Made by a program: the position numbers and the translations under genes. DNA of 64,000 bases. Origin: an uncultured Clostridium sp. (lineage in GTDB: Bacteria > Bacillota > Clostridia > TANB77 > CAG-508). The DNA lies in contig USGY01000002.1 of NCBI GenBank assembly GCA_900554365.1, positions 54,136 through 118,135 of the forward strand, given 5' to 3'. The notes under the pieces are model-generated. The model ran no database searches and was not told the origin of the DNA. It was given only the letters and a program-made list of their open reading frames with translations. Within the stretch, counting starts at the first letter, position 1, and every line of letters starts with the position of its first letter. Of the stretch, positions 21,414 through 39,872 are shown in pieces.

Positions 21414-21435
21414 ATTTCATTTCTCCATTCTTTAA

Positions 21436-22372: not shown

Positions 22373-22443
22373 TTGTTATTTAATTAGTCATTATATTTAA
22401 CTTCTGTTCCATCATCTAAAGTCTTAACTATTTTACTAAAATC

Positions 22444-22569: not shown

Positions 22570-22613
22570 AATTATCCTCCTCTCAATTTTTATATCATAA
22601 ATTTAAATTTTTA

Positions 22614-22859: not shown

Positions 22860-22904
22860 TTTTTTAACTTTCTGTGCCTCATTTTTTTTTGCATTTCTTA
22901 TTTT

Positions 22905-23912
22905 TTATTTTTTTTCTTCTTCCTCTTGATACTTTCTTTCTCTTTCTTCTCTTGCTAACCTTTCAATTTTAACTTCTTCGGATTGTTCATATAGTTTTAT
23001 AATTATATCTCCTAATTTATCTTCTAACTTTACTTTATCTGTTTCTCTTATATATTTTCTATTTCCACAAGTTATTTTCAATTTACCATTATGAACATAA
23101 TCATATTTTCTTATATTAGGTTTAGATGCATATGTAAATACTTTTTTCCTATCTTCGTATTCTAATAGCTGCTTTGCTTCTTCCTTTGTCAATTCATGCT
23201 TAACTTGATCTTTTAATTCTTCTATTTCAAGTTCAACATGCTCATCTCTAATCGTTAATGAAAACTCTTTATTTACTTCTCCACCTAATTCTTCTATAGT
23301 ATAATAAATAGCGCTTAATATTTTCATACATCTATCCTTTTCAAATTTAGATATATTTTCAAAGTATCCTTTTTCTACATAATTATGAATATTATAATAT
23401 GGATTAAGATAGTTTGCTTTTCTTTCTTCTCGTCGTTCTTCTCTTTTCTTGTTTTTATATTCAGTAATTATTTTATGATTTTTCTTATAATTATCTATAT
23501 TTAAATCATAAATAACTTCGGCTACTTTTCTTTTTTCTTCATCTGATAAAAAACTTAAAAGATTAAATTCTGTAACAAATTTATCCTTGTCACTAACTTT
23601 GCTATCAATTAATACTCCACTTACTTTTAATGGTATCTCTACTTCTTTTACTTCAGACTTTGGTAATTCAATAATATCATTTGAAAAATCTAGTCCCATA
23701 TTCTTTTTTGTCCAATATGATGATGATGGATATGGAATGTCATTTTCTTTACATACTTGTACTAATTTTGTATAATTCAAGCCATACTTTTTAGCTACAC
23801 CTGTCAATGAAATTTTCCATATCTCATCATAAAGTCTATTTCTTTCAAATTTCATAGATAAACTATCCATAAAAATCTTCCTTTCCTTCATATTTCTTTT
23901 CTTTATCTTCAT
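22905..23912 (-). CDS. hypothetical protein with a highly charged C-terminal (E/K/R) coiled-coil-like region
   Basis: A 335-aa ORF with no recognisable catalytic motif. Confidence 0.35.
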   Translation of the reverse strand: MKIKKRNMKERKIFMDSLSMKFERNRLYDEIWKISLTGVAKKYGLNYTKLVQVCKENDIPYPSSSYWTKKNMGLDFSNDIIELPKSEVKEVEIPLKVSGVLIDSKVSDKDKFVTEFNLLSFLSDEEKRKVAEVIYDLNIDNYKKNHKIITEYKNKKREERREERKANYLNPYYNIHNYVEKGYFENISKFEKDRCMKILSAIYYTIEELGGEVNKEFSLTIRDEHVELEIEELKDQVKHELTKEEAKQLLEYEDRKKVFTYASKPNIRKYDYVHNGKLKITCGNRKYIRETDKVKLEDKLGDIIIKLYEQSEEVKIERLAREERERKYQEEEEKK

Positions 23913-23945
23913 ATTTTCCTAGCGAAAATGCGAACTCATATAATT

Positions 23946-24320
23946 CTAATTCTCTTGTTCTGCATTTTCGCTTAATATAAAAAGTAAGTCGTCTTTCATT
24001 GATTCAAATTCTTTTATAATAGTTTCTAGATTACTTTCAATATTTTGCACTCTGATTTCAGATATTTTTCCATATTTATAAGCAATTAATCTTTCAGCAA
24101 TTATATGATATGACCAACTTTCTGAAAATCCCCTATCATTTTCCTCATTATGTACTGCAAATCCTATAGGTAATAAATTATTTCTCATTCCTAAGGAAAC
24201 TGCATTAGAAGAAATTCCTAAATAATCTCCTGCAATCTGACATGTTATTTTTGACTTATTCCTTATATCGTCATCTGTATATTTGCTCATAAAAAATCCT
24301 CCTTTAATATAAAAAAGCAA
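23946..24320 (-). CDS. small hypothetical protein, possibly an HTH
   Basis: A 124-aa ORF whose likely true start is the internal MSKYTDDD. It has an HTH-like segment (ITCQIAGDYLGISSNAVSLGMRNN). Confidence 0.3.
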   Translation of the reverse strand: MLFYIKGGFFMSKYTDDDIRNKSKITCQIAGDYLGISSNAVSLGMRNNLLPIGFAVHNEENDRGFSESWSYHIIAERLIAYKYGKISEIRVQNIESNLETIIKEFESMKDDLLFILSENAEQEN

Positions 24321-24364
24321 AATAATATTGTAATATACTTAATTACTCTTTTATTTTGCTTTTC
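24311..24364. repeat. AT-rich long-stem hairpin repeat (family member 2 of 3)
   Basis: AAAAGCAAAATAAT-loop-TTATTTTGCTTTT, located between the R gene end and the upstream small gene. Confidence 0.55.
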
Positions 24365-24390
24365 TTATGTTTAATTCAATATATCTATTA

Positions 24391-26166
24391 TTAAGAAACT
24401 TCTTTTTCCTTCCATTCTTCTATGTATTTTTCTATATTTTTATCCCAAATTTCATAATTTTTACAATTTATTGCTCCTTTGTGAATATATTGTAATAAAT
24501 TATTAAATTGATCTATTTCTAAATTGTTTTGATATGTGTATTCTAATATCTTCATATATTGCCCTATAGTTAAAGGAATAACTGGTACAGGATTTCCCAT
24601 CCAACTTTCTTTATTTAAGATAAAAAATTGCCACATTGTCCTAACATTTATTCTACTTGATATAAACAATCCTGTTACCTTTGTAGTTTTATGTTTTTTT
24701 ATTATATTTAATACGTGATCTATTACTGATGATGCCTCATGTTCCCATTGTAAAACTCCAGTCATTAATGATACTTCTGGTACAATAATATATTTATCAT
24801 TATATAATTCCATATCTGGCGTGTTCCCTGTTCCAGGGGCAAAATTTCTAGGTGATAAATCTTCTTCAATAGTAAAGTTTCTTTTTACATCTTTTTCTCC
24901 ATCAATTGCGACTAGTGATTTCCATGTGTTGCACTCTAGCCATAAAGCAGCCATATCTTCATCACCACTAACAATATCTTCAAACTTCTCAATGATCTCA
25001 TTTCTAATGCTTTCAGTTTTTGAAGTATATTGAATAAATATTTTTTCATTTAAACTTGTAATTTGATCTACTAATTCATTTTCTATAACTTTAAGTTTAG
25101 TATCCTTATTTCTCTTATCAAGTTCTTTATAATATAAATTACTATCATACTTTAAATCAAGTCCATATTTGCTATTATATTCGTCAATTTTTTCTTCTAA
25201 TAATATTATTTTATCAACAATTAAATCTTTACGATTCTTTTCGTTTTCCCATGGAAGTTGAATATTATCATAATCACCAAACCAGTCCATATATTCATCA
25301 AGATTCTCGGTTTTTATATAATCGTAATTATAGAAATTTTTTAACATTTCTATTTTTTTCCTTGCGTATTCTGCTATTCTAACCTTGGTATAATTTCCTC
25401 TTCCTGATATATTAAATAAACCTGTAAATCTTAGCGCTCTATTAATTGCATCGCACATTGTAAAATAAGTTCCTTCTGATTTTCCCTCTAAAGAAAAATA
25501 TTTTTCTGCAATTTTTCTATATAATGCATTACATTTATTACCATCTCTCTTATTTTCAAGAGACAAGTATTCTTTTCTAAACTCTTTTACTGCCTTTAAT
25601 AATTTATCGTATTCTTTCATATCATTACATAGTAATGCAAGACTCATTTCGAAACGATTTATATACTCTAAATCATATACTAAATTTATTATCATCTTTA
25701 ATGGAAATACTGGATTTTCATTTGAACAATTTTTTCCATACCCAGTATTTATAGAAGGAAAATGCATATTTAATAATAATTTCAGAAATATCTCGCTATC
25801 GAAATTACCTTTCGCAATCATTTTCCCGGATTTAGTAACTCTAACTTTTCCATCAGCATCAATAAATCCTAAACCCAAAAATTTATATGTTGCTAAATCA
25901 TTTCTTGCATTACTTTCGCTATCAGCTTCCCCATCAAAATTCCCACTCAAATATTCGTCATATGATAAATTTTTTATGGGAGACTCTTCTATATCTATTT
26001 GCGTATTAAAATAATACTGCCTTCTAATTGGGTGAATAGGCTTCATATTTTTACTTAATTTTTTAAAAGAATAATCCCAATCTTCTCCCTCTAGTTTTTC
26101 AAATGATTTAAACCACTGTATAGTTTTTATAACACTTCTTGGCTTTGTCCTCCAACCCCATGCCAT
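24391..26166 (-). CDS. AlwI-family (N.BstNBI/PleI/MlyI-like) type IIS restriction endonuclease
   Basis: The 591-aa ORF shares blocks that I recall from N.BstNBI: the N-terminal TKSGKMIA block matches TEAGKMLA, and the C-terminal NFTIEEDL...APGTGNTPDMELYNDKYIIVPEV block matches NFVIDEEL...AAGNQPDMEIIYEDFIVLGEV. It sits next to a Dam/DpnM-like methyltransferase. The identification rests on remembered sequence and was not searched. Confidence 0.55.
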   Translation of the reverse strand: MAWGWRTKPRSVIKTIQWFKSFEKLEGEDWDYSFKKLSKNMKPIHPIRRQYYFNTQIDIEESPIKNLSYDEYLSGNFDGEADSESNARNDLATYKFLGLGFIDADGKVRVTKSGKMIAKGNFDSEIFLKLLLNMHFPSINTGYGKNCSNENPVFPLKMIINLVYDLEYINRFEMSLALLCNDMKEYDKLLKAVKEFRKEYLSLENKRDGNKCNALYRKIAEKYFSLEGKSEGTYFTMCDAINRALRFTGLFNISGRGNYTKVRIAEYARKKIEMLKNFYNYDYIKTENLDEYMDWFGDYDNIQLPWENEKNRKDLIVDKIILLEEKIDEYNSKYGLDLKYDSNLYYKELDKRNKDTKLKVIENELVDQITSLNEKIFIQYTSKTESIRNEIIEKFEDIVSGDEDMAALWLECNTWKSLVAIDGEKDVKRNFTIEEDLSPRNFAPGTGNTPDMELYNDKYIIVPEVSLMTGVLQWEHEASSVIDHVLNIIKKHKTTKVTGLFISSRINVRTMWQFFILNKESWMGNPVPVIPLTIGQYMKILEYTYQNNLEIDQFNNLLQYIHKGAINCKNYEIWDKNIEKYIEEWKEKEVS

Positions 26167-26178
26167 GGTTTTTCCTCC

Positions 26179-27310
26179 TTAATAATTTGTTATTAACAAA
26201 TGTTCAACATCTTTATCATTTCTATTTTGAAAACTTACAAGATATTTTTTATCAAATGTTTTTATCCTAAATTCTTTTGTATTATATAAATTATAAATAA
26301 AGTCAGTATTCTTTATAATCAACATTATATTTGCTTTTGTATTTTTTAAATATTCACATAATCTCACTTGATCATTCTTGGCAAACTCATTTTTTGCATA
26401 TGTCGAAAATTCAGTATCATATGGGGGATCTAGAAAAATAAAATCTCCTTTTTTAGGTTTTACCTCTTTAAGAAAGTTTTCAAAATCATCACAATATATT
26501 TTTGTATTTGTCATATATTCTTTTATTTTCTTTGAACTTATATAGTTAATCTTTTTTATAAATTCTTTTCTATTATAGCTTATCCCTCCATAAGGTACAT
26601 TAAACTTTCCACTTTTATTATATCTAAACATAGACGCATAGCAAAATTCTCTTATAAAATAAAATATTGCTGTATAAAATGGTATACTTATATTTAAATT
26701 TTCAGCTTCGTTATACAAATGTCTAAAATGCATATAAAATGCACTTTTAAATGCACATTCAATATTATCAAGAGTATCTTTTTCACTCATCTTTTTTCTT
26801 TGAATTTCTATTTTATACATTCTATTCATTTTAGAAATTAGGTTTTTTACAATTTCATTTATAAAATTATCTATTTCAATATTAAATTCTGCAGATAATA
26901 TTCCATTAAATTCTTTAGCATGTCTTATTACAAATGCATATATTCTATCATTAAATTGTTGCTTAATCTCTTTTGTATTTTTATTATCAAGCTGTTTACA
27001 ATACTCTCTATACATTTTTAATAGCTCATCTGCATTATTTTCAACAACGCCTTCTAATAATACCCAGTTTTTATAAATAGCTTTTAATTTAGTAAAAAAT
27101 TCTTTATCTTGATTTTTGATACATTTATATAAATTTATTAATTCTTCAGATTTGTCATTTATAACTGAATTTTCAATATTTATGTCAAAATAAACTGCTC
27201 CGACCTCCTACAAAAGGCTCTATATATCTATCTATTCTACGTGGCAAATTTCTTTTTATATATGGCAATTCCTTTTCTTTTCCACCAGCCCATTTTATTA
27301 TTGGATTCAT
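26179..27310 (-). pseudogene. DpnM/Dam-like N6-adenine DNA methyltransferase (GATC class, D12 family) disrupted by a +1 frameshift near 27200-27205
   Basis: The N-terminal 42 codons (MNPIIKWAGGKEKELPYIKRNLPRRIDRYIEPFVGGRSSLF*) match the DpnM/Dam motif I (KWAGGK...EPFVGGG) and then hit TGA. The next frame continues AVYFDINIENSV...NSVINDKSEELINLYKCIK... into the annotated 278-aa ORF, which has FNVPYG and FLDPPY (motif IV) and ends ITNY as DpnM does. Removing one C from GGTCGGAGC restores FVGGGAVYFD. Confidence 0.75.
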
Positions 27311-27457
27311 AAAATTACTCTCCTTTGTTCCAATTATTTATTTTATATCACAAAATACATTTTTTAACAACAAATTATCAATTATTTCGTAATTAATTTT
27401 TATTTATCATATATTATCAAACATTTGTTTTTATTGCAATAGTTTTTATGAGATTTT

Positions 27458-28081
27458 TTAATTTTTATGAAAAAAATTATCATAAGGATAACCAGATTCA
27501 ATATACAACTCTGTTAACTCCATCTTATATTTTTCTAATAATTCTAAATATTTTTGTTTAAATACATTTTTACATAGCCACTCTACACCTTCTTTAGAAA
27601 TCACAACTTTATTATTAACTAAAAGTTTACATTCACTAAATCCACTATCACACATTTTCTTAATTGCTTTTCTAACTGTAATGTCTTTTCTATTGAAATA
27701 CTCACATAGTTGTTTTATATCCATATCTTCATTCCACCATTTTCTATCTGGTTCTATTTTTAGTAATTCTTCATATTGTCTAACTCTGTCCTCAAAAAAA
27801 TCTACATCAGCATCTATTAAAGATTTTTCTTTTTGAAAATAAACTTGATTTAGCCATGCGTATCCTTCAATTAAAACAAAATATTTTCTACTTCTTACTT
27901 TTTCACTTCTCCATCTGCAAGTTGAATGTTTTTTTAGCATAACATCTATAGCTTTTCTTAAATCTACATGTGTTATTTCTTTACCATTTTTAGTAGTAAC
28001 CCCTATCAATTTAAAAGTCTTTAAGATTTTATTATATGATAAAAAAATACTATCTAAAGCTTGTTCTGAGCTTCTCCACAT
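27458..28081 (-). CDS. conserved phage/satellite-associated protein (paralog of 43797-44420), function unknown
   Basis: About 75% aa identity to the element-B paralog. The true start is probably MWRSSEQ (aligning with MRRDSEQ in B); the 17 codons upstream in the track ORF read through the conserved noncoding leader. Confidence 0.55.
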   Translation of the reverse strand: MWRSSEQALDSIFLSYNKILKTFKLIGVTTKNGKEITHVDLRKAIDVMLKKHSTCRWRSEKVRSRKYFVLIEGYAWLNQVYFQKEKSLIDADVDFFEDRVRQYEELLKIEPDRKWWNEDMDIKQLCEYFNRKDITVRKAIKKMCDSGFSECKLLVNNKVVISKEGVEWLCKNVFKQKYLELLEKYKMELTELYIESGYPYDNFFHKN

Positions 28082-28099
28082 TTTCGTCACTTCCTTGTT

Positions 28100-28275
28100 A
28101 TAAAAATTTATTAATGCTAGTCTACGAAGCATTAATAATTAGCAAAATTTATTTTGATCGAATTTAGGTAGTATTTTTTAGTACCTAATATTCGCCAGCC
28201 TGGTGTCTTGACACCTTTTTCGCTGTTTAGGGCAAAATGCCCTAATACCTTTTTTGCTCTCCGAGGGACTTTTTT
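28100..28275 (-). promoter_or_regulatory. conserved structured noncoding leader, copy 1 (possible ncRNA or cis-regulatory RNA)
   Basis: About 95% nt identity to 44441-44612, whereas the flanking genes are only ~75% identical. It contains perfect hairpins TTAGGGCAAAATGCCCTAA and GGTGTCTTGACACC and an AATGCT...AGCATT inverted repeat. Confidence 0.5.
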
Positions 28276-28415
28276 GATAAAAAACTTATTAATTTTTATC
28301 AAAATATTTTGAAAAAAGTTCAAATTTTGAGTTTAGAAATTTGAACTTTTTTCTTTACTTTTGTCTTTAAATATACTATAATAAATTTAGTTTTTGAATT
28401 AAGTTAGCATTTAGT

Positions 28416-29252
28416 TTAGTCGCTTATGCTAGCTTTTTCTTTTTGATTTTTATCATTTCCTTTTAGTTCAATTCCATAACACATTCTATACAACTTTTGA
28501 ATAATAGCATTGGATAATTCTTTATCATTACTTTGATAAAATCTATGTAATAAACTTTCCTTATTAAATCTAGTTGTTATTATAATTGGTAGTTTATTTT
28601 CATTTCTATTTTCTATAATTGTATATAATTTATCTAGAGCCCACTGGCTTATTTTTTCTGTTCCTAAATCATCTATTACAACCATATCTGTATTTGAAAA
28701 TAATTCTATTAATTCATTTTCTGACTTTGAATTATCTTTAAAAGTTTCTTTGATCATATCTAACAATGATGATAACCTCCCCATCAACACTAGTTTATCT
28801 TCTTTAATTAATTCATTTGAAATTGATGCTGCTAAATGTGTTTTTCCTACGCCTGTATTTCCAGTAATAATAAGTCCATTTTCTTGTTTGTTTTCGGTAC
28901 ATTTTTTAGTGTAATCTTTTGCTATTTCAACTTCATTTTTATTAGAATCTGTTACTTTAAAATTGTTAAAATTATAATCCTTTAGTCTTTTACTAATGTA
29001 ATTTTGCGAATAAAACTGATTGATAATTTCCCTATAATGTTCATTCTTTTTCTGCTCTTGAACTTCTAAATCAATTCCTTTCCAAAATTCAATAGATTCC
29101 TTACAAGTACATCTTTCATATTCAATGGAATCTGGAGATATATTAGTATATAAATAATCTAAGCCTATTGGTTTTAATTCTTTTCCACAAAATTTGCATT
29201 TATTGTGAAAATTCTTTTGATAATTATTACATTTTGTATTCTCTAAATCCAT
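28416..29252 (-). CDS. DnaC/IstB-like AAA+ helicase-loader ATPase (phage replication)
   Basis: It has Walker A GNTGVGKTHLA and Walker B VVIDDLG, plus an N-terminal Cys-rich zinc-binding region. It is a paralog of 44752-45621. Confidence 0.8.
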   Translation of the reverse strand: MDLENTKCNNYQKNFHNKCKFCGKELKPIGLDYLYTNISPDSIEYERCTCKESIEFWKGIDLEVQEQKKNEHYREIINQFYSQNYISKRLKDYNFNNFKVTDSNKNEVEIAKDYTKKCTENKQENGLIITGNTGVGKTHLAASISNELIKEDKLVLMGRLSSLLDMIKETFKDNSKSENELIELFSNTDMVVIDDLGTEKISQWALDKLYTIIENRNENKLPIIITTRFNKESLLHRFYQSNDKELSNAIIQKLYRMCYGIELKGNDKNQKEKASISD

Positions 29253-29742
29253 TTATATTCTCATTCTCCTTTCTGTTATTTTCCATAATTTCTTCTAATG
29301 TATTATCTTCTTGTGCGTTATTTTCCGTTATTGTAACGTTACTTTTTTCTTTTTCACTTTTCAATCTTTCACGATATTTTTGTTGTCTTATTCTATTTTG
29401 TTCTTTATATTTTTCGGATGATTCAATACTTTGGTATTCATCCCAATTCTTGATTTTGTATGCTCCTTCTTCTACAATTATCATATTTAATTCTTGAAAT
29501 TTTTTAATAATTTTCTCAATCTTTTTCTTAGACTTTCCCATAATCTTAAAAAAATCTTCTATTGTCATTGGTTTATTATCTCCTATTACTAATTTACCAT
29601 CGCAATTACATTCTATAGCAATAGTCAATAATTGAATCCATACTCTAAAATATGTATCTCCATCTTGTTCTTTTAGTAATATTTGAATTTTTCTGTTTGA
29701 AAATATTTTAATTTCAATTTTTAACCATTGTAAATTATACAT
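29227..29742 (-). CDS. phage replisome organizer N-terminal domain protein (replication initiator)
   Basis: The 171-aa ORF shares IFSNRKI.ILLKE..GDTYFR.WIQ.LTIA.ECN.DG with the paralog at 45593-46063, consistent with the Phage_rep_org_N family. Confidence 0.65.
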   Translation of the reverse strand: MYNLQWLKIEIKIFSNRKIQILLKEQDGDTYFRVWIQLLTIAIECNCDGKLVIGDNKPMTIEDFFKIMGKSKKKIEKIIKKFQELNMIIVEEGAYKIKNWDEYQSIESSEKYKEQNRIRQQKYRERLKSEKEKSNVTITENNAQEDNTLEEIMENNRKENENINGFREYKM

Positions 29743-29770
29743 ATCCTCCTTTCCTCACTTTCCTTACAAT

Positions 29771-29968
29771 CTAGCTAATAGATTGTTGTTCCATTTTTTC
29801 TAAATATTCATCTAGTGCTTGTACTCTAAATAAATATTTTCCACCAACTTTTGAGCATGGTATTTGCTTTCTTCTTACTAATTGATTAACTAACCAATAA
29901 GATATTCCTAAATACTCTGCTGCTTCTTTCATTGTTAGTGTAGTTCTTTGAACTTTTTGTAATTCCAT
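29771..29968 (-). CDS. xis: excisionase-family helix-turn-helix DNA-binding protein (Xis-like)
   Basis: The 65-aa ORF has the excisionase-type MerR-like HTH LTMKEAAEYLGISYWLVNQLVRRKQIPCSKVGGKYLF. Its paralog is at 46078-46293. Confidence 0.7.
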   Translation of the reverse strand: MELQKVQRTTLTMKEAAEYLGISYWLVNQLVRRKQIPCSKVGGKYLFRVQALDEYLEKMEQQSIS

Positions 29969-30117
29969 AGTATCACCTCCAATTTCTTTGTTATTATGTA
30001 TTGACTTTTGTTAGCAAATGTATTATATTGTGTGTAGTTAACTTTGTAAATACTTTATGGGTTATTTTGATAGCAAGTTAGCTTTATACATTTTTATTAA
30101 CTGTTAACGGAGGAATT

Positions 30118-31155
30118 ATGAATAAAATTAATAATGAAATACACATTTCTATTAATACTAGAGAAAATCTTAATCACATAACTTTATTATATGGAGATTT
30201 AAAGAAATTACATTACTATACTTTAGGTGAACTTTCTAATTATCATTTCTTTATTAAAGATCACTTATCATTTTATCGTACTGGAACAAATTTAATTGAC
30301 TTTTTAAATACAGATTTTTCTAATTTTGATGAGTATTTCGTTTGGTTTACTAAGTTTTTTACATCTTATGTTAAATACTTTGAAGAAGCTGATATTAAAA
30401 AATTAATAATTGACAAGTCCTATAGTTACAATGATATAGAAACACTGGCAAGAAAATATTTTGAAATAATAAAAAAAGATGCTGAAAAAGTTCAAGCAAT
30501 CTATTCTGAATTTGTTGACTATATTTTTAACAAGCATAGCATGGAAAATTCAAGAAAAATGACTAACCAGATGAGATTTTATATTTATTACACATCACAT
30601 TTTAAAACATTAAAACCATATGTTACTGATTTTCAAATAGATAATGCTTTCAATTATAAAATCTTTCCCGAATATCTAGAAAAGGGTGAAGATAAATTAT
30701 TAGAGTTTTTTACAACTGGACAACATTTTGCTGATGTATATTCTGATATTGGCGCAACTAGTTCTAATATTTATACCATATTATATATTACACTATTTCA
30801 ATTCGTGGAAGAAAACAATTTTATAATAAAAAAATGTAAGAATTGTGATAAATATTTTATAACAGATAATCTTAGAGTTAATTATTGTAATAATTTATTT
30901 AAAGGAACTCAAACTTGCAAAGATATTGGTAATCAAATCGCTCAAAGGATTAAGCAAGAAAATGATAAAGTTTATGGCAAATATCGTAAAATATATTCTA
31001 AAAAGGCTATGTTAGTTAAACGTAATCCTGATATAGAAGTTTATAAAAAGAATTACGAAAATTGGAAAAAAGAAGCTAAAAAATTTATGGATAATATAAG
31101 AAATGAAAAGAAAACTTATGAAGAATTTAATAAGTGGTTAGATAAAAATAAATAA
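30118..31155 (+). CDS. conserved hypothetical protein with a C-terminal Cys4 zinc-ribbon (paralog of 46475-47470)
   Basis: A 345-aa ORF with the KKCKNCDKYFI...YCNN...CKDIG pattern. It lies upstream of int on the same strand in both elements. Confidence 0.45.
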   Translation: MNKINNEIHISINTRENLNHITLLYGDLKKLHYYTLGELSNYHFFIKDHLSFYRTGTNLIDFLNTDFSNFDEYFVWFTKFFTSYVKYFEEADIKKLIIDKSYSYNDIETLARKYFEIIKKDAEKVQAIYSEFVDYIFNKHSMENSRKMTNQMRFYIYYTSHFKTLKPYVTDFQIDNAFNYKIFPEYLEKGEDKLLEFFTTGQHFADVYSDIGATSSNIYTILYITLFQFVEENNFIIKKCKNCDKYFITDNLRVNYCNNLFKGTQTCKDIGNQIAQRIKQENDKVYGKYRKIYSKKAMLVKRNPDIEVYKKNYENWKKEAKKFMDNIRNEKKTYEEFNKWLDKNK

Positions 31156-31241
31156 AGGAAAAGTTCAATTACTTTTCCTCTCTTTATATATAATTAATTT
31201 ATGACCATTTTCAACTTATTTATATTTCATATCTATGTCTA

Positions 31242-31928
31242 TTATATTTCTTTGCAAATATTATACTCATCAATATTGTCTAGTCTTTCATAAGATTCAT
31301 CTATATATTTGTCTATATTATTAATAAAATCTTTCCACTTAACGGCTTTTATATAGCTGCATTCTCCAGAATATATTTTTTTACTTGAATCATTTTGGCA
31401 TTCCGTTTGTAATTTATCCTTTTTATTAAATTTGTTTTCTCTTAAAATTTTAAATAATTTATTCGTATAATGAGTTCTACAAAAAGAAAAGCAACATGTA
31501 TGATCTTCCAAATAATAACTATATGAATCATTACTATCTGGTAATACAACAGCTAGCATTGCATTAGTTTTACTTGTTACATCTTGTCCAGATTCGTTTT
31601 TTCTTTTAGTTTCTTTAAGTGAATATGATATTTCCCATGGTATCCATTGATTCCTATCACTTTTTCCTTCTTCTTTCATTTTGGGAGAAATAAAAACTAT
31701 AGTTAGTGTACTATCATAAATCCTATCTTTTAATTTTTCCCATATGGTATCTTCGCTTAAATTAGATAAATCTTCTCCTTCACTTTCTCCTTTAAAAATA
31801 TGATTTGAACTATCTATTCTGTTTTCTAATTCGGTAACATAGTCTCTTACAGTAGAATTTTCCCAATAATTTAAATTTTTAACATCGTCATCTGCATATT
31901 TATATGATACAAATATTTTGTGTCCCAT
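31242..31928 (-). CDS. TIR-like domain protein (DUF1863/ThsB-like, second TIR of the operon) with a Cys-rich C-terminal extension
   Basis: It has KIFVSYKYADDD at the N-terminus and the TLTIVFISPKM...WIPWEISYSL pattern typical of bacterial TIR-like domains. A 13-nt gap separates it from the ThsB gene. Confidence 0.6.
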   Translation of the reverse strand: MGHKIFVSYKYADDDVKNLNYWENSTVRDYVTELENRIDSSNHIFKGESEGEDLSNLSEDTIWEKLKDRIYDSTLTIVFISPKMKEEGKSDRNQWIPWEISYSLKETKRKNESGQDVTSKTNAMLAVVLPDSNDSYSYYLEDHTCCFSFCRTHYTNKLFKILRENKFNKKDKLQTECQNDSSKKIYSGECSYIKAVKWKDFINNIDKYIDESYERLDNIDEYNICKEI

Positions 31929-31941
31929 TTTTTTCCCTTCC

Positions 31942-32409
31942 TTATTCTTCTATCCATTTTCCAAAGTTTTCATATCCATTGTCATTTATCCAATCATATG
32001 TCTTTGCTATCTGAAAGAAATATACATCTTCTCCATTTGAATTTTTTCCTAAACTTCCAAAAGTTGTATCACCTTTAGAAGATGTTAAACCAGTTCTCAT
32101 ATCTTTTATATTGTGTATATAAATTCCTATTATTTTATTTCCTCTTTTATAACTTTGTTGAAGTTCATATCTAACGAATTTTCTATTACTAGTTTCTGCA
32201 CCTATTAACACAGCTGTAACGCTTGTTCCAATTAATTGTTCATCTATCCAATCATATACTGCCTTATCTCCTTTTGCTTTTATTTTCTCAAATTCTGCTT
32301 TATCTATAAATCCAGCATCCTTATTACCTCTTATAACCCAACTATTTCTAACAACATTTGCTCTATTTACATCATTATCATAATGAAAACTAAAAAATAC
32401 ATTTTTCAT
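31942..32409 (-). CDS. thsB: Thoeris ThsB (TIR-domain signalling protein)
   Basis: The 155-aa ORF closely parallels B. cereus ThsB: VFFSFHYDNDVNRANVVRNSWV aligns with VFFSFHYQDVIDFRVNVVRNHWV, SVTAVLIGAETSNRKFVRYEL...GNKIIGIYIHN aligns with SVTCVLIGSQTFNRRWVRYEI...GNKIIGIHIN, and the C-terminal YDWINDNGYENFGKWI aligns with YDWVADDGYNKFSSWV. Confidence 0.85.
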   Translation of the reverse strand: MKNVFFSFHYDNDVNRANVVRNSWVIRGNKDAGFIDKAEFEKIKAKGDKAVYDWIDEQLIGTSVTAVLIGAETSNRKFVRYELQQSYKRGNKIIGIYIHNIKDMRTGLTSSKGDTTFGSLGKNSNGEDVYFFQIAKTYDWINDNGYENFGKWIEE

Positions 32410-32423
32410 TTAACTTCACCTCT

Positions 32424-32900
32424 CTAAATAAATTTTAGTAAAATTGTAATACAAATAAATAATATATAAAATCCTATTACAGAAAAAGACCTTACAGCCT
32501 CTAGCATAACAGCAAAAACTTCATATTTTAAATCTGTATTTTTAGGATTCATATTATATATTTCTTTCTCATCTATTTGATTTTCATTTAATTTTTTTAC
32601 AAAATTATTATATCTTTTTCTATACATTCTTTCAAAAGCCAAATAGTAAGTATCCATAATCATTCCTACCAAAGCTATAATTAGTCCTACCCACCAATAT
32701 CCTTTTAATTCTTTAACAGCTATTAGAATAGTAATGAATATTGTATATACCACTGCTATTAACGCTTTAATATTAGCACTATTTCCACCCATTCTGCTTA
32801 TAACATTTTGTAAAAATTCTAAATAAGCAACTACTGATGAACGATCTTTTAAATCAATTATTTTCTCTTTTGCATTTATCTTTGTATTATCTTTTTCCAT
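32424..32900 (-). CDS. small 3-TM membrane protein, first gene of the TIR operon (candidate non-canonical Thoeris effector)
   Basis: The 158-aa ORF has a ~45-aa soluble N-terminus followed by three predicted transmembrane helices. A 14-nt gap separates it from thsB. It is too short to hold SIR2/SLOG or Macro domains. Confidence 0.45.
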   Translation of the reverse strand: MEKDNTKINAKEKIIDLKDRSSVVAYLEFLQNVISRMGGNSANIKALIAVVYTIFITILIAVKELKGYWWVGLIIALVGMIMDTYYLAFERMYRKRYNNFVKKLNENQIDEKEIYNMNPKNTDLKYEVFAVMLEAVRSFSVIGFYILFICITILLKFI

Positions 32901-33143
32901 TTTTCTTCTCCTATTCTTTCGACAGATTATATCATATTTTCTGTAAATAATCCAGTATTTTCAAATAATTTTAGTCTTCAAATTTTCGACATTTTTTTAC
33001 ATTTTATTACATTTATAAATTTTTTAAGTTTCTTTTTGAAAACTATTGCATTTTGTTAACTATTATTATATAATACTTTTGTTAACGATTATATGAATAC
33101 TCCTCCCACCCATAGTTATACTTGAAAGGAGGTGAAATAAGTA

Positions 33144-34337
33144 ATGGCTGGGAGTATAGAAAAAAGAGGAAAAAATAGTTACAGGCTAACGGTATCTGAA
33201 GGATTTGACTTAAATGGAAATCCAATGATACACAGAAAGACAGTACATGGAACTAAAAAAGATGCAGAAGTTGAACTAGCAAAGTTTGTTACTGAAGTGC
33301 AAAATGGTTTAGTTGTTGATGGTAAATCTCTTAAATTTTCTGAATTTACTGAGATATGGAAACGAGATTATGGTTCAAAAGAACTTGCTCCTTCTACATA
33401 TAAACGTTATTGCAGAATGTTAGAAACAAGACTTTTACCATATTTCGGACATTTTTACATTAATAAAATTAGACCAACTGACATTATGAAGTTTTATGAT
33501 TTACTTGAAAAAGATACTCAGCTAACTAGAAAAAAAGGCAACAATGGAGAAAAAACTAAAAAGCCTTTGTCTGGTAAAACAATTTTAGAACATCATAGGT
33601 TACTTCGTGCAATGCTACACAGAGCAGTTTATTGGCAACTTATTGTTAGTAATCCTGCTGAACGTGTTCAAGCACCTAAGGCAAAAAAGCCTAAAAGAAA
33701 ATCTTATGATGATGAACAAACTAAAATATTACTAGAGAATTTAGAACAACTTTCTATAGAAGATACTAAGTACAAAGTTGCTATCATTCTTACTGTTTTT
33801 ACTGGTGTTCGTTTAGGTGAATTAATGGGATTGGAATGGCAAGACGTTGATTTCAAAAATGGAATAATCAGTATTAATCGTTCTAGTCAGTATCTATCAG
33901 ATATGGGAGTCTTTACAAAAGTTCCAAAAACAGAAAGTTCCATTAGAGAAATCGCAATACCCGAATTTATCATTTCTTTGCTTGAGGAATATAAGTTATG
34001 GTATGAAGAGCAAAAATTGATTTATAGCGAATTGTGGAACGATTCTAATAGGTTATTTGTACAAGCAGATGGCAAGCCAATGCATCCTTCTACAATCAGC
34101 AAATGGTTTGTTAGATATGTTGGACAAATTGGATTACCTGTAATTAATTTTCACGGATTAAGACATACAAATGCAAGTTTATTAGTTGCACAAAATGTTG
34201 ATATTGCAGTAATTTCTGCGAGATTAGGTCATGCACAAATAAGTACTACACTTGATTTTTATGTGCATCCACTACTTTCTCATAATAGAAAAGCTGGCTA
34301 TGCACTAGAAAACTTGTTATTACCAACAAGGTCTTAA
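33144..34337 (+). CDS. int: tyrosine-type site-specific integrase (phage integrase family), element A
   Basis: The 397-aa ORF has the catalytic motifs R...HGLRHT...LGHAQISTTLDFYVH, an N-terminal SAM-like domain, and an RBS GAAAGGAGGTG identical to that of the element-B integrase. Confidence 0.9.
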   Translation: MAGSIEKRGKNSYRLTVSEGFDLNGNPMIHRKTVHGTKKDAEVELAKFVTEVQNGLVVDGKSLKFSEFTEIWKRDYGSKELAPSTYKRYCRMLETRLLPYFGHFYINKIRPTDIMKFYDLLEKDTQLTRKKGNNGEKTKKPLSGKTILEHHRLLRAMLHRAVYWQLIVSNPAERVQAPKAKKPKRKSYDDEQTKILLENLEQLSIEDTKYKVAIILTVFTGVRLGELMGLEWQDVDFKNGIISINRSSQYLSDMGVFTKVPKTESSIREIAIPEFIISLLEEYKLWYEEQKLIYSELWNDSNRLFVQADGKPMHPSTISKWFVRYVGQIGLPVINFHGLRHTNASLLVAQNVDIAVISARLGHAQISTTLDFYVHPLLSHNRKAGYALENLLLPTRS

Positions 34338-34499
34338 TTTGAACTTTTTTCTGATTTTCACAAATTACAAATTTTCACGATAAAAAATAAAAGGCAACTA
34401 AATATATTTTTTTAGATTTCCCATTGCCTTTTGTAATGTATAAAAAGTATAAAATGATAATGAATTTTTATTGATATTTAAGGCGTTTGAGGTATTTAT

Positions 34500-34522
34500 T
34501 TTACCCAATTTTTACCCAATTC
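34500..34522. repeat. tandem arm-type repeat TTTTACCCAATTTTTACCCAATT (right arm of element A)
   Basis: Identical to the repeat at 16046-16068. Confidence 0.6.
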
Positions 34523-34620
34523 AACATAACATTGTCACTTTCAAACATTATTGCAACCAATTTAAAGGCATAAAAAAATACCCACAGTCATTGAAACTGT
34601 AAGTATTTATCCAATGGTTG

Positions 34621-34665
34621 CGGGAGTAAGACTCGAACTTACGACCTTCGGGTTATGAGAATTTG
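34621..34665 (-). repeat. att core: 3' half of the initiator tRNA-Met (anticodon loop to CCA) without the 5' half
   Basis: The reverse complement, CTCATAA-CCCGA-AGGTC-GTAAG-TTCGAGT-CTTAC-TCCCGCA-A-CCA, folds as anticodon loop (CAU) + 3' anticodon stem + variable loop + a perfect T-arm (TTCGAGT loop) + acceptor 3' strand ending CCCGCAACCA, as in tRNA-fMet. The upstream sequence does not supply the pairing 5' half. Confidence 0.7.
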
Positions 34666-35127: not shown

Positions 35128-35154
35128 AAAAGGCGAGAAAGTTCTCGCCTTTTA
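35128..35154. terminator. bidirectional rho-independent terminator
   Basis: AAAGGCGAGAA-AGTT-CTCGCCTTTT perfect hairpin with a T-run, between convergent genes. Confidence 0.7.
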
Positions 35155-37896
35155 TATTGAATTTATTTTATTTTTAATAAGATTAACATCTTTATTATCT
35201 TCAATATGTTTTATAGTAGATATGATTTTATTTTGGCATTCTGGAGACCAATAAATTTTTAATTTTTCTTTTGCTCTAGTTATTGAAGTATAAAAAATAC
35301 TATGCGTAATTAATTCATCAATTTCATTTGTTATTATAATTTTTACAGAATTATACTCTAAGCCTTGTGATTTATGAATAGAAACTGCATATGCAACTGA
35401 GAAAGGTACAATTGTTGCTAGATCAGAATCATTATCCTCATCAGCATTTCTATACTTATTGACATAGAATTTTACAATTGATTTATTATTTTCAGATTCT
35501 CCTACCAATTCTAAATCTAAAAATTGTATTTCTAATTCATTAATTACTTTATCTATTTCTACTGAAAACCAAAATCTAAACTCATCTTCTTCTATATCTA
35601 CAATTTTGCCTTTTAAGTTATTATATATTACTGGTGAAAATCTATTAGTATCTCCAAATATAATTGGGTCTCCCACTTTATAAGTACCTAAATCTAAAAC
35701 TATTGACTTGTTTTTATTCTCATTTTGCAAATAGTAATTTATGCTATTTATTCCATATAATCCATCATAATTTAGACAAAGTATAATTTCATCTTCATCC
35801 TGCTTTTTAAATATTTCTTCACTAATTTCTTCTGAAAATTCTTTCTTTACTAACATTTCATCCACTCTATCATCGCCATTTCTAACCAATTCCCATAAAT
35901 CTAGCAATTCTTGTTTTGTACTTCTCCATGTAAAGTTTAATTCAAATACCGATGTTGGATTTACTAATTTTTTTGATAATGTAAACCAGTTTCCAAATGT
36001 AATAGATTCAATCTGGTAAATATCTCCAGCAAGCAATATAGCACTAAAATTTGCCTTTTCTAAAATTTGTCTCATATCCAAATTACTAATTGTACTACAT
36101 TCATCAATAATTAAAATGTCACATTCAGTATTATTGTTGGATTCACTAATAAATTTATGTACTGTCATAAAATCAGAATTTTGATTATTTACATTACTTT
36201 TTAGGTTTTCAACAGCAGAATTTGTATTAGCTAAGCATATTTTTCTTTCATTACTATAAAAGTATGTCAAATGTTTAATTAGAGTAGTTTTTCCTGTTCC
36301 AGCAGCCCCATATATTAGAGCAACTGTACTATTTTCATACATATTTAATAATATATTTTCTTTTTCTGGGCAATTAATTAAGTAATTTCCTTGATTTATA
36401 AAACTTTGAAATGATGCTTTATAGCCTCTTATTCCATGATTTGTCAAGGAGTTCAACTTATTAATTATATTAATAGTGTCATCTTCATATCCATGAATAT
36501 ATAAATTATTATTTTCTATTACCAAACACCTATTAGGTTTATGTTTATAATAAATTTTATTATTATAAGAATTGACCAATGTAGGAATATCTCCAAATTT
36601 TCTAACCTCATCTATACTAGTATATAATTTATTATTTTGCTCTGTATTCTTTTTTATATAACCTGCTAATAATTCATCATTTCTACCTTCTATAGGGACT
36701 ATATCTATCAAATCATATATTGTTGGATTATGATTTATTAATGATGATGCATATGGCATTTCCTCAAATGGAATGCACCCAAATTGCAAGTATAAATTCG
36801 ATAGAATAGAACAACTATCTAATGCAAGTTGATCCTTTATAATCCTATTATTGCAATTATATAATAAATATCTTAGTACAACATGTCCTTTACTATTATT
36901 TTTTATATAATATCTACAGTTATCAATTAAATCCAATATTCCAGTTGTTGTTGAATTACTTTTTATTTTTTCTTTTATTTTATCATAATATATATCATTT
37001 ATTGTTGCTAAATCTAATAAACTATATTGTGCTTTTGTTAGTAAGCTCATAACTTCTGTATATTCTTTGTTGTTAGCTTTATATTTTTTATTAATTCCAA
37101 AAACCTTATAAAAATTATTTATTTCACATTCTCTTATAGCAACAGACCAGTTGTTTATTATATTTATTGCCATGTCTCTTCCAAGAATATTTACTTTTGC
37201 TTTAACAATAGACAACTTTATTGAATAATTTGGCATAATATGCATTCTAGTAAATGCTATAATTTTATCATACTTATTAACCTTATCTTTAGCTGGTGAC
37301 AAAGTAACTTCATAATATATTTTTCCATTAACAAAAAAAGTTTTTAATTTTTGTACATAATATTTATCTCCACTGAATTGATCAGATGTATTAGTTGGAA
37401 CCTTTTTTATTACATCAGCAACCTTTTTATAATAATCACTAAAAGTACTATCTAAATCAAGTGGAAAATCAGTTATATTATTTAGAATATCTATGTTATA
37501 CAATATCTTCATATAATCCTTCAATAATATTAGATATTTATAGTATTTAAGCATAAGTCTTTCTGCAGAATCATCGTTTTCTATATAGTGTGATCTTGAT
37601 ATCTGCAGATAATAATGGAATCTTTCAATAAATTTTATTTTTCCCCTACTTTTTATATAATCTAATGCAATTCTAACAGTTCCATTGTCGTAATTAATTG
37701 TTTCTGTCTTTCCAGTTAAATATATCTTAACAGCAATATATTCTACAAAAGTTCTTAATGCATTTAATAAGTTTTGAGATAAAAATCCGCGGTCATCATC
37801 AGAAAATTTTTTTATATTTCGTTCAATATTAGAATTAGCTTCCATTATTTTTTTATCTATACTATTAAAATCATATTTTTCTTCAATTTTTATCAT
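35152..37896 (-). CDS. large protein with a C-terminal SF1 (RecD/Dda/UvrD_C_2-like) helicase domain and a ~500-aa N-terminal region of unknown function
   Basis: It has Walker A GAAGTGKTT, Walker B ILIIDE, and the SF1 C-terminal motif SIHKSQGLEYNSVKII...FYTSITRAKEKL. The start is trimmed to MIKIEEKY, which has an RBS. Confidence 0.55.
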   Translation of the reverse strand: MIKIEEKYDFNSIDKKIMEANSNIERNIKKFSDDDRGFLSQNLLNALRTFVEYIAVKIYLTGKTETINYDNGTVRIALDYIKSRGKIKFIERFHYYLQISRSHYIENDDSAERLMLKYYKYLILLKDYMKILYNIDILNNITDFPLDLDSTFSDYYKKVADVIKKVPTNTSDQFSGDKYYVQKLKTFFVNGKIYYEVTLSPAKDKVNKYDKIIAFTRMHIMPNYSIKLSIVKAKVNILGRDMAINIINNWSVAIRECEINNFYKVFGINKKYKANNKEYTEVMSLLTKAQYSLLDLATINDIYYDKIKEKIKSNSTTTGILDLIDNCRYYIKNNSKGHVVLRYLLYNCNNRIIKDQLALDSCSILSNLYLQFGCIPFEEMPYASSLINHNPTIYDLIDIVPIEGRNDELLAGYIKKNTEQNNKLYTSIDEVRKFGDIPTLVNSYNNKIYYKHKPNRCLVIENNNLYIHGYEDDTINIINKLNSLTNHGIRGYKASFQSFINQGNYLINCPEKENILLNMYENSTVALIYGAAGTGKTTLIKHLTYFYSNERKICLANTNSAVENLKSNVNNQNSDFMTVHKFISESNNNTECDILIIDECSTISNLDMRQILEKANFSAILLAGDIYQIESITFGNWFTLSKKLVNPTSVFELNFTWRSTKQELLDLWELVRNGDDRVDEMLVKKEFSEEISEEIFKKQDEDEIILCLNYDGLYGINSINYYLQNENKNKSIVLDLGTYKVGDPIIFGDTNRFSPVIYNNLKGKIVDIEEDEFRFWFSVEIDKVINELEIQFLDLELVGESENNKSIVKFYVNKYRNADEDNDSDLATIVPFSVAYAVSIHKSQGLEYNSVKIIITNEIDELITHSIFYTSITRAKEKLKIYWSPECQNKIISTIKHIEDNKDVNLIKNKINSI

Positions 37897-37923
37897 ATTA
37901 ATTAGTCCCTTCTCATATAATGT

Positions 37924-37972
37924 AAAAAGCAAAATAATTCTGTAATATATAATTACTATTATTTTGCTTTTC
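37924..37972. repeat. AT-rich long-stem hairpin repeat (family member 3 of 3)
   Basis: AAAAAGCAAAATAAT-loop-ATTATTTTGCTTTTC, between the Fic and helicase genes. Confidence 0.55.
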
Positions 37973-37978
37973 TTTAGT

Positions 37979-38914
37979 TTATTTATTTCCAATATAATAT
38001 TTTATCATTTCTGTGTATTGATCTTGTGCATTTAAACAAGTATCTATTAAATAACCTTTTTCTTTATTAGTTTGATATTGATTTAATCCCCTATAGTAGA
38101 ATAATTTATCTTTATCTAAAATAATAAATGGTACAATATTATTTTTTAAACATTCTTTAAATGCGATTATTCTACCAACTCTTCCGTTGCCATCTTGAAA
38201 TGGATGTATCTTTTCAAATTTAGCATGAAATTCTATTATTTCATTTATTGTTTTTTGTTTTAAAGATTCATACCATTCTAATAATTTTTTCATATCTCTT
38301 TCAACATTTTTAGGCTCTGTAGTTTTTAGCCCTCCAACCTCATTCGGTAATTTTTTATAATCTCCAACTATAAACCAATCTTTCCTGCTATCTGACGTTC
38401 CCTCTTTTAATATTTTGTGAAATTCTTTTATCATTTTTTCTGTTAGTTTTTTATCTGCTATTTCTAACATATAATCAACTAATTTAAAATGATTAGCAGT
38501 TTCTAACACATCATCTAAATCTGTTACTGAGTCTTTTTCTGCTAATAATGTGTTAGTTTCATAAATATATCTAGTCTGATCTTCTGTAAGTTTACTTCCC
38601 TCAATATGATTAGTATTATATGCAAAAGTTATTTGAGTATTATGATATAAATTACCTTTTAGTTTCATTTTTTTTTGTTCTCTTAATACTTCTAAAATAT
38701 TTATTCTTGATATATCAAAAGTATCTTCTTTTATCAATTCATCTACTGATACTTCAAACAAGTCAGCTAATTTCTTTAATGATTCTATATTAGGTTCTAA
38801 AGTTCCAGCTTCATATTTGGAAATAGTTGCTGCTTTTACTCCTAATGTTTCTGCAACTTCATTTTGAGTCATTTTTTTATTTTCTCTATATAATTTTATC
38901 TTTTCTCCTAACAT
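37979..38914 (-). CDS. HTH (XRE-family) plus Fic/Doc-family protein (putative AMPylase or toxin-like)
   Basis: It has an N-terminal Cro/C1-type HTH (KMTQNEVAETLGVKAATISKYE) and the Fic motif HPFQDGNGRVGR. Confidence 0.8.
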   Translation of the reverse strand: MLGEKIKLYRENKKMTQNEVAETLGVKAATISKYEAGTLEPNIESLKKLADLFEVSVDELIKEDTFDISRINILEVLREQKKMKLKGNLYHNTQITFAYNTNHIEGSKLTEDQTRYIYETNTLLAEKDSVTDLDDVLETANHFKLVDYMLEIADKKLTEKMIKEFHKILKEGTSDSRKDWFIVGDYKKLPNEVGGLKTTEPKNVERDMKKLLEWYESLKQKTINEIIEFHAKFEKIHPFQDGNGRVGRIIAFKECLKNNIVPFIILDKDKLFYYRGLNQYQTNKEKGYLIDTCLNAQDQYTEMIKYYIGNK

Positions 38915-39023
38915 AATAAAAACTCTCCTTTTTGATTATAATAATATTATATCATATTATTTCCGAAAAAGAAAGTTTTTATTTATGTTTTGTGTAATTA
39001 TTTCCAAAAAGGAATTTGTTTTA

Positions 39024-39857
39024 TTATTCTTTATTCATATTTTCTTTTAAAGTTTTTCCATCTCTATTTTTCCATTGTGTTAATCCATTTGAATTTCTGC
39101 CTAATACCATAGCTGCTGCAGTAGATGGTGAAGAAAATATTATATCTTTTAGAAATACCCCTTGGTCTACTATTTTTTGATTTCTTAATTCATTCCATTT
39201 ATTTCTTAAAGACTGACTACTAGCTTTTTTAAACTCTTCACTACTTTGTGAACCTTTAAAAACTATAAATCCCTCTTCTGATTGAGCACCAGACGCTTTT
39301 AATCCAATAGAATTAATATAATAAATTTCTTCTTCTTTAACTTCTTGTTGCGTTAGAATCTTATCAAAAATACGATATCCATATACTGAAGTTAACAATA
39401 CTATTTTTTCATAAAATTTCACTGCTCTTATTTCATCTGCACCATCTAAAGAAGATTTTGTTGGTTCTGTATCATTATCAATAATAAATCTTTCAACTTC
39501 TTTTGCTTTTGTATATAGCATATTTTCAATAAATTTTATATGTGCTTTATTTAAAGAATTATTTTGACTAACAAATACTAAACAATCATTCCAAAAATCT
39601 TTTGTTTTATTATGTTGTAATAGTCTTTTATATATGTTTTCTGCCTCACCTATATATGCTCTATTTTCTCCTGTTTCTTCATCAACACCAAATAAAATAT
39701 ATACCCCTGTGTTTTCTATATTTTTAAGCTCTTTTGATTCGTTTAACCTATTTCTAGGAATCTTATAACTTACTCCTATCCATTCATCTAAATTGCACTG
39801 TACTATTCCAGTTGGCATTCCATTTCTTAATATCATTGTAATTACACTTGTTTCCAT
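39024..39857 (-). CDS. GIY-YIG nuclease family protein with a DUF4357-like C-terminal domain
   Basis: The GIY-YIG core is GVYILFG...RAYIGEAENIYKRL. It lies immediately downstream of the R-M-S gene. Confidence 0.6.
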   Translation of the reverse strand: METSVITMILRNGMPTGIVQCNLDEWIGVSYKIPRNRLNESKELKNIENTGVYILFGVDEETGENRAYIGEAENIYKRLLQHNKTKDFWNDCLVFVSQNNSLNKAHIKFIENMLYTKAKEVERFIIDNDTEPTKSSLDGADEIRAVKFYEKIVLLTSVYGYRIFDKILTQQEVKEEEIYYINSIGLKASGAQSEEGFIVFKGSQSSEEFKKASSQSLRNKWNELRNQKIVDQGVFLKDIIFSSPSTAAAMVLGRNSNGLTQWKNRDGKTLKENMNKE

Positions 39858-39872
39858 ATATTTTCCTCGCTT

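Follow-up and report, generated by a model that had tools for sequence, protein, structure and literature searches.

Introduction

What kind of defence system is encoded by an operon in which two TIR proteins of the Thoeris type are accompanied by a membrane protein of just 158 residues? The question is raised by three genes within a 64,000-nucleotide stretch of DNA from an uncultured gut Clostridia bacterium (the whole of which we refer to as the window). A preliminary description had read the locus as a Thoeris variant in which a minimal membrane protein, possibly a signal-gated pore, acts as the effector, with a TIR module served by a trans-encoded effector as the alternative. Our analysis leads us to conclude that the operon very probably constitutes a type V Thoeris anti-phage system (thsF-thsB-thsB), borne as cargo on an integrative island and acting through a signal that addresses ThsF. 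Judged by homology to ThsF, the guess of a signal-gated membrane effector was essentially right, but it is not new. Indeed, the arrangement was a PADLOC candidate (PDC-M50) in 2023 and was experimentally verified as type V Thoeris in 2025, having been named, tested and partly explained (10.64898/2025.12.03.692087), so that the novelty implied by the preliminary description falls away.

Organization of the operon

The operon comprises three open reading frames on the minus strand. The first, thsF (32424-32900), encodes the 158-aa protein that we assign as a three-transmembrane type V Thoeris effector of the PADLOC PDC-M50A family. It is followed after 14 nt by thsB-1 (31942-32409), encoding a 155-aa TIR protein resembling ThsB of Bacillus cereus MSX-D12, and this in turn after 13 nt by thsB-2 (31242-31928), encoding a 228-aa TIR protein of the ‘TIR1’ type. 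Two TIR genes, with Pfam and PADLOC ThsB matches, are thus placed downstream of thsF in one operon, in agreement with the composition of a type V system. The matches of the operon to Pfam, PADLOC and PDB entries are far beyond chance, and none of the three products is covered by an NCBIfam model.

Divergent transcription of thsF and the integrase gene int leaves an intergenic region of 243 nt (32901-33143, read on the minus strand), which likely contains both the operon promoter and the ribosome-binding site of thsF. A Shine-Dalgarno-like sequence, AGGAGAAG, lies upstream of thsF and ends 5 nt before the ATG. On the minus strand, a promoter-like site runs from 32964 to 32936; it rests on agreement with the consensus alone, in a region where the number of such sites does not exceed the shuffled expectation. 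After the last operon gene, a terminator-like hairpin readable on both strands (31154-31181) is positioned between the convergent thsB-2 and DUF6076 genes, two terminator-like sites having been found against 0.4 expected in shuffles. With AGGAGAAG before the first ATG and the hairpin after thsB-2, the three genes therefore look like a single operon.

The TIR proteins

The product of thsB-1 matches Pfam ThsB_TIR (E 5.9e-23), a PADLOC ThsB model (1.3e-60) and the solved structure of B. cereus ThsB (PDB 6lhy/9b7d, 2.5e-29), its ‘fvryel’ being aligned to ‘wvryei’ of the latter. Additionally, it matches PDC-M50B (7.1e-52) while adjoining thsF. The catalytic glutamate is E82, set in the motif VRYEL and aligned with the glutamate of B. 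cereus WVRYEI that is mutated in E85Q. The product of thsB-2 matches the PADLOC ThsB model PDLC00428 (8.1e-80) and, more weakly, Pfam ThsB_TIR (1.4e-6), and aligns over its full length with PDB 9vyl, ‘Putative cyclic ADP-D-ribose synthase TIR1’ (1.1e-68). Its motif QWIPWEISYSL, in which the catalytic glutamate stands, is conserved, and WIPWEISY is identical in 9vyl. Both the ThsB homologue and the second TIR-like protein 13 nt downstream of it, as named in the preliminary description, are borne out by these matches.

On the evidence of these alignments, the catalytic glutamate is kept in both TIRs, and both are similar to ThsBs of type I systems whose product is 3'cADPR. This makes 3'cADPR the probable signal here, one that by analogy would gate an oligomeric ThsF channel. 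Support for a shared product comes from the preprint of Ofir et al., in which B. cereus ThsB and both TIRs of B. dafuensis make the same ThsA-activating cADPR isomer, and in which the two unrelated TIRs of B. dafuensis give additive phage ranges.

A search of the operon, the island carrying it and all ORFs of 110 aa or more from 13956 to 50776 revealed no SIR2, SLOG or Macro domain, which upholds the earlier claim that a ThsA of these kinds is lacking. A PADLOC scan of the other ORFs of the window did not place ThsA among the best 25 of 134 matched families; for the rest of the window, the absence of ThsA is suggestive only. Combined with the homology described below, these results give no support to the idea of a trans-encoded effector.

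Homology of the small membrane protein to a verified effector

Type V Thoeris was defined in a survey of TIR operons (preprint of the Sorek laboratory, December 2025; Yirmiya et al.; 10.64898/2025.12.03.692087), which verified seven new Thoeris types. It consists of ThsB and ThsF, the latter a protein with three transmembrane segments labelled DUF2270 by the authors, and was verified in B. thuringiensis DAR 81934 and in Bacillus sp. 1NLA3E (10.64898/2025.12.03.692087). We took the sequence of the verified B. thuringiensis DAR 81934 ThsB from Table S1 of the survey, located an identical protein (P0391, 100%) and retrieved its contig, in which the gene directly downstream (L015:3773-4198) encodes the verified ThsF, a protein of 141 aa.

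Several comparisons indicate that the window ThsF is homologous to this experimentally verified effector. The two proteins align by BLASTP with 31% identity over 93 residues (E 2e-10), and hhalign pairs the family profile of the window ThsF with the verified ThsF over 121 columns (probability 99.1%, E 4.2e-19). The verified ThsF matches the same four PDC-M50A models as the window ThsF, with a best E-value of 1.8e-48; the window ThsF scores more weakly (4.1e-20, that is, 4e-20 against 2e-48). Both proteins are small and share an identical layout of three hydrophobic segments. Furthermore, Table S1 contains peptide motifs of both TIRs from the window in entries labelled ‘DUF2270 - Type V’, in TIR clusters 2612507145 and 2742576382. 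By its 31% identity and its lower PDC-M50A score, the window ThsF appears as a divergent member of the family.

The survey also holds a separate, unverified ‘3TM’ effector class, which we considered for the window ThsF and set aside, type V being the better assignment given homology to the verified ThsF.

Pfam is a poor guide to membership in this family. The window ThsF has no match to PF10028 (DUF2270) at E<=0.1, and the verified B. thuringiensis ThsF has no Pfam match at all at E<=0.01; the absent DUF2270 match of the window ThsF is therefore no argument against membership. PF10028 does not separate members of the ThsF family from non-members. The best Pfam match of the window ThsF is a sub-threshold one to 8xMP (E 0.004), and a Pfam scan revealed no Macro domain in it. 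Outside Pfam, it matches phrog_19896 (E 6.9e-17).

The family is large. An exhaustive search of 1.84 billion cluster representatives returned 991 relatives at E<=0.001, mostly of 140-160 aa, these being representatives at 50% identity. Among 103 sampled members, all matched the PDC-M50A models (102 of the 103 for one of the four models), while Pfam 8xMP was reached by only five and DUF2270 (PF10028) by only three, the best of the latter at E 1.1e-5. A profile search gave 890 matches at E<=0.001, the best 120 of which carry no precomputed Pfam domain and include, among others, Clostridia, Marinobacter and the archaeon Methanolobus. These diverse members were reached through the representative and profile searches; a first homologue search had listed only relatives at least 77% identical, and a contig scan with back-translated patterns, which were too specific, recovered only two near-identical loci in Clostridia MAGs.

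With no usable Pfam model for the family, and even the verified ThsF unmatched, its effectors are left as ‘hypothetical’ by standard annotation, and readers working from sequence alone will repeatedly rediscover them as new. A curated family model would be useful for so large a family, which is frequent on conjugative plasmids of E. coli and Klebsiella and extends into archaea.

It is a separate observation that the ThsF family shows weak full-length similarity to the Pfam ‘octameric membrane protein’ family 8xMP and also to DUF2270, a hint that ligand-gated mini-channels may form a wider superfamily. A literature search on 8xMP, PDC-M50 and octameric membrane proteins found nothing relevant.

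Predicted fold and conserved residues

Hydropathy places three hydrophobic segments in the 158 residues of ThsF, at approximately 44-64, 69-89 and 135-157, preceded by an N-terminal head of about 43 residues, much as the preliminary description had pictured the protein 14 nt upstream of thsB-1. Basic residues cluster in the head and in the 89-126 loop, a distribution which suggests that the N-terminus lies inside the cell. An AF2 monomer model, built from an alignment of 130 sequences, is all-helical with a mean pLDDT of 83.4. Neither a Foldseek comparison of this model with the PDB (at E<=0.001) nor a search of PDB sequences with the profile returned a match; no solved structure informs the fold. 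The structural check proposed in the preliminary description thus yielded a helical model and no structural relative in the PDB.

The most conserved residues of the family are Q31, R36, K45, D83, Y86, E90, R94, Y97, S138 and Y145, most of which the verified ThsF of B. thuringiensis also has. The model places Q31, R36 and K45 on a cytoplasmic extension of TM1, while D83 to Y97 occupy the cytoplasmic end of TM2 and its basic extension. This placement fits a candidate nucleotide-binding site near the membrane, on its cytoplasmic face.

Linkage of the ThsF family to TIR genes

A TIR gene lies close to the ThsF-family member in all eight diverse, independent contexts that we inspected, and directly adjoins it in seven. 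These contexts span archaea, proteobacteria, clostridia and plasmids. In Methanolobus sediminis, a pair of ThsB and membrane-protein genes is set between housekeeping genes, namely those of the shikimate pathway and TIM, and the vicinity offers no further candidate effector. In Marinobacter nauticus the membrane-protein gene comes after a pair of TIR genes, and on each of two metagenome contigs one or two TIR genes adjoin it. The family member and a TIR gene stand side by side on an IncFIA plasmid of E. coli, on plasmid p6CSt of C. botulinum and on a plasmid of Vibrio chagasii; on a Dietzia plasmid, a HIT-domain gene intervenes between the two.

The co-occurrence of ThsB-type TIRs with small membrane proteins, which the preliminary description had proposed to survey, is therefore seen throughout this sample, which rules out that the 158-aa protein is a housekeeping membrane protein placed beside the TIR genes by coincidence. 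Together with homology to the verified ThsF, this linkage supports the earlier suggestion that a minimal membrane protein serves as the effector.

A mobile island with defence cargo

The operon is situated on an integrative island of approximately 18.7 kb, here termed E1 (15910-34659), which is bounded by copies of a 16-nt core, ACCTTCGGGTTATGAG. Three copies of this core are present in the window (at 15910, 34644 and 48922), and additional flank repeats were also found for E1. The second and third copies lie within fragments resembling the 3' end of a tRNA; an intact tRNA was not detected. The repeats delimit two tandem islands, E1 at 15.9-34.7 kb and E2 at 34.7-48.9 kb.

The backbone of E1 consists of int, xis, a replisome organizer, a DnaC-like loader and DUF6076, and its cargo includes a Gabija-like pair, an exonuclease-BRCT protein and an AlwI-type restriction-modification system in addition to the Thoeris operon. 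The tyrosine integrase gene int (33144-34337, plus strand) matches Pfam Phage_integrase (1.4e-25) and Phage_int_SAM_3 (1.6e-14), and its product is 54% identical to the integrase of E2. DUF6076, the replisome organizer and the DnaC-like loader are likewise shared by both islands. In E2, the DUF6076 gene directly adjoins int, while in E1 the Thoeris operon stands between these two genes and therefore looks like inserted cargo. The E1 element is also found in other gut metagenomes (for example L003), with different chromosomal genes at its flanks.

This refines the earlier placement of the operon between xis/rep and int: int does flank it on one side, but the other flank is the DUF6076 gene (30118-31155), convergent with thsB-2, with xis and the replication genes beyond. 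Similarly, the label of a ‘satellite-like’ element agrees with the presence of int, xis and a phage-type replication module but is unproven, packaging and virion genes not having been found on the island.

Proposed mechanism and its alternatives

We infer the following course of events. The two unrelated TIR proteins would act as infection sensors, each probably answering different phage cues, by analogy with other systems that possess two ThsBs. Once triggered, they would use NAD+ to make one of the cyclic isomers of ADP-ribose, with 3'cADPR as the most probable product. ThsF, with its N-terminus inside the cell and three transmembrane helices, is predicted to form a ring-shaped homo-oligomer in the membrane and may bind the signal on its cytoplasmic side, in a conserved site of positive charge for which Q31, R36, K45, D83, Y86, E90, R94 and Y97 are the candidates. 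Binding of the signal would then open or disrupt the membrane, so that the infected cell ceases to grow before it can release phage progeny.

The model draws support from the verified B. thuringiensis DAR 81934 system. There, infection leads ThsB to produce 3'cADPR, cells supplied with this compound suffer only if they bear the system, and defence is lost when the Tad1 sponge is present; for its ThsF, a heptamer with positively charged pockets between protomers is predicted by AF3 (10.64898/2025.12.03.692087).

The chief uncertainty of the model is the identity of the signal. It is conceivable, if clearly not what we expect, that the architecture is as proposed while the signal is not 3'cADPR, or while 3'cADPR is insufficient, in which case 2'cADPR, canonical cADPR, another molecule or a second infection cue might be involved. 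The type V variant of Bacillus sp. 1NLA3E makes 3'cADPR yet is not triggered or intoxicated by it when added (10.64898/2025.12.03.692087), and the signal may therefore vary between clades. The window ThsF is, moreover, just 31% identical to the verified, 3'cADPR-responsive ThsF, and TIR clusters are common to Thoeris types with different effectors. Against this, both ThsBs stand near type I TIRs that make the ThsA-activating isomer, and the verified ThsF retains most of the residues that its family conserves. We consider it rather improbable that the gut-Clostridia ThsF clade, with its two unrelated ThsBs of the type I kind, departs from the verified system in using a signal other than 3'cADPR, in needing both TIR inputs or in having a different stoichiometry.

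Returning to the TIR proteins themselves, many bacterial TIRs are NADase effectors, as in CBASS, Pycsar and SPARTA, and one could suppose that those of the window are toxic, NAD+-depleting enzymes to which the membrane protein is a sensor, anchor or regulator. The authors of the survey voice this very caveat for unverified TIR operons. Such a division of roles is nevertheless very improbable at this locus: in the verified system with a homologous ThsF, externally supplied signal is toxic and a signal sponge abolishes defence, and the window TIRs are short, ThsB-type proteins related to known producers of signal. Hardly any weight can be given to the idea that the membrane protein came along as an unrelated passenger while the ThsBs rely on a canonical ThsA elsewhere in a genome visible over 64 kb only, ThsBs of these families being paired with SIR2-SLOG ThsA in other genomes, since the TIR linkage is met with across bacteria and archaea, the two genes of the B. 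thuringiensis system suffice to defend B. subtilis, the ORFs searched (110 aa or longer, 13956-50776) contain no SIR2, SLOG or Macro domain, and the operon moves as a unit on a mobile island. We therefore retain the reading of the operon as a type V system in which ThsF is the effector and the TIRs supply its signal.

Comparison with known systems

A survey of TIR proteins in E. coli (PMC11350192) includes one two-gene system with a transmembrane protein. SLATT effectors, found in CBASS and, as ThsH, in type VII Thoeris, are also small, multi-transmembrane proteins thought to oligomerize on a nucleotide signal. However, the ThsF family shows no significant SLATT match (SLATT_6 in one of the 103 sampled members, E 0.0077), and type VII uses canonical cADPR.

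Type II Thoeris, with its TM-Macro effector and His-ADPR signal, shares with the window the logic of a TIR sensor coupled to an effector that spans the membrane and by which the cell is killed or arrested. It differs in its Macro domain, in an effector that is of another family and much larger, and in its TIR families, to which those of the window do not belong; a 158-aa protein is too short to accommodate a Macro domain together with three transmembrane helices.

The resemblance to type I Thoeris, as in B. cereus MSX-D12 and B. dafuensis FJAT-25496, lies on the sensor side. The ThsBs are homologous, as the 6lhy and 9vyl matches (2.5e-29 and 1.1e-68) attest, B. dafuensis likewise possesses two unrelated ThsBs, and the signal is probably the same, 3'cADPR. 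The effectors are different: a SIR2-SLOG ThsA was not found in the operon, the island or the ORFs of 110 aa or more from 13956 to 50776, and the predicted outcome is membrane disruption rather than depletion of NAD+.

The closest counterparts are PDC-M50 and type V itself. PDC-M50, composed of PDC-M50A and PDC-M50B and included in PADLOC-DB v2.0.0 (2023), is matched by the window pair of thsF and thsB-1 (4.1e-20 and 7.1e-52); it is a computational candidate without a mechanism, and the window has in addition a second TIR, recognized by the ThsB model PDLC00428. With type V Thoeris the window shares the effector family (by hhalign, PADLOC models, three transmembrane segments and a length of about 140-160 aa), the adjacency of ThsB-type TIRs, and TIR families represented in Table S1. 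The verified B. thuringiensis operon is ordered thsB then thsF and has a single TIR of another cluster, whereas in the window thsF leads and a pair of thsB genes comes after it. The N-terminal head of the window ThsF is longer than that of its verified counterpart, and the host is an uncultured gut Clostridia bacterium. The findings made at this locus leave the current understanding of Thoeris unchanged. Taken together, they add a further case of type V Thoeris from a Clostridia lineage of the human gut, on a mobile island where it travels beside Gabija and a restriction-modification system.

Tandem islands and their boundaries

Two related integrative islands, inserted in tandem, together span positions 15910-48937 of the window: E1, at about 15.9-34.7 kb, which carries the type V Thoeris operon (thsF-thsB-thsB), and E2, at about 34.7-48.9 kb. 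Their integrases are 54% identical, and three copies of ACCTTCGGGTTATGAG bound the two islands. Copies 2 and 3 are embedded in fragments similar to a tRNA 3' part (T-arm, acceptor stem and CCA end), whose anticodon loop was read by eye as CAT. No intact tRNA was detected in the window by ARAGORN or by Rfam. Immediately to the left of the first att core is a stretch of about 500 nt without ORFs (15380-15900), very high in T + G and containing loose repeats with units of 20-40 nt, for example TTTGTGTGTTTTTTTAATGG.

Cargo of the two islands

Besides Thoeris, E1 carries an AlwI-type endonuclease (24391-26166) adjoining a D12-class adenine methyltransferase that occupies two ORFs, one encoding a 41-aa N-terminal portion (27185-27310) and the other 278 aa long (26179-27015). 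The same split is found in four independent metagenome copies of E1; it is therefore conserved, rather than a sequencing error in the window.

The cargo of E2 (35152-43682) comprises other defence candidates. Two of them match PADLOC models: a 946-aa helicase (PDC-S53, E 0) and an HTH-Fic protein (PDC-S04, 1.1e-108). The other two are a GIY-YIG/DUF4357 protein, encoded at 39024-39857, and a protein of 1269 aa, encoded at 39873-43682, that has N6_Mtase, Eco57I and Methylase_S domains. The 1269-aa protein is probably the source of the type IIG restriction-methyltransferase match (E 4e-225) returned when the remaining ORFs of the window were scanned with PADLOC. Immediately past E2, at 49077-50776, one gene encodes a HEPN (RiboL-PSP) protein and another a protein with a GmrSD-N domain, so that the defence-gene cluster extends beyond the second island.

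Relatives and distribution of ThsF

The family of the small three-TM effector ThsF, represented in the window at 32424-32900 (-), is without a model in Pfam or NCBIfam. Its similarity to Pfam 8xMP ('octameric membrane protein'; E 0.004) is weak and spans almost the whole protein, and a few members show similarity of this kind to DUF2270 (best 1.1e-5). These sequence similarities suggest that small oligomeric membrane proteins form a broader superfamily that includes ThsF.

In the plasmid collection, 100 plasmids, mostly conjugative, carry ThsF-family genes; Klebsiella accounts for 42 of them and E. coli for 36. Since the family also matches phrog_19896, it circulates on both plasmids and phages. 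One of these genes lies on the C. botulinum plasmid p6CSt, together with phage terminase genes.

Comparison with known systems

E1 additionally encodes a Gabija-like pair, consisting of a GajB-like UvrD-type helicase (16575-18365) and a GajA-like AAA_15/OLD-TOPRIM ATPase (18346-20076). A UvrD and OLD-TOPRIM pair likewise directly adjoins the verified type V Thoeris of B. thuringiensis (4454-6759 of its locus, L015). On the Dietzia plasmid NZ_CP046569.1 (locus L013, 3004-4311), the neighbours of a ThsF-family gene are a HIT-domain gene, which it abuts, and a lone TIR gene. Here, one TIR sensor could serve two different effectors, the HIT domain being the effector class of type XI Thoeris.
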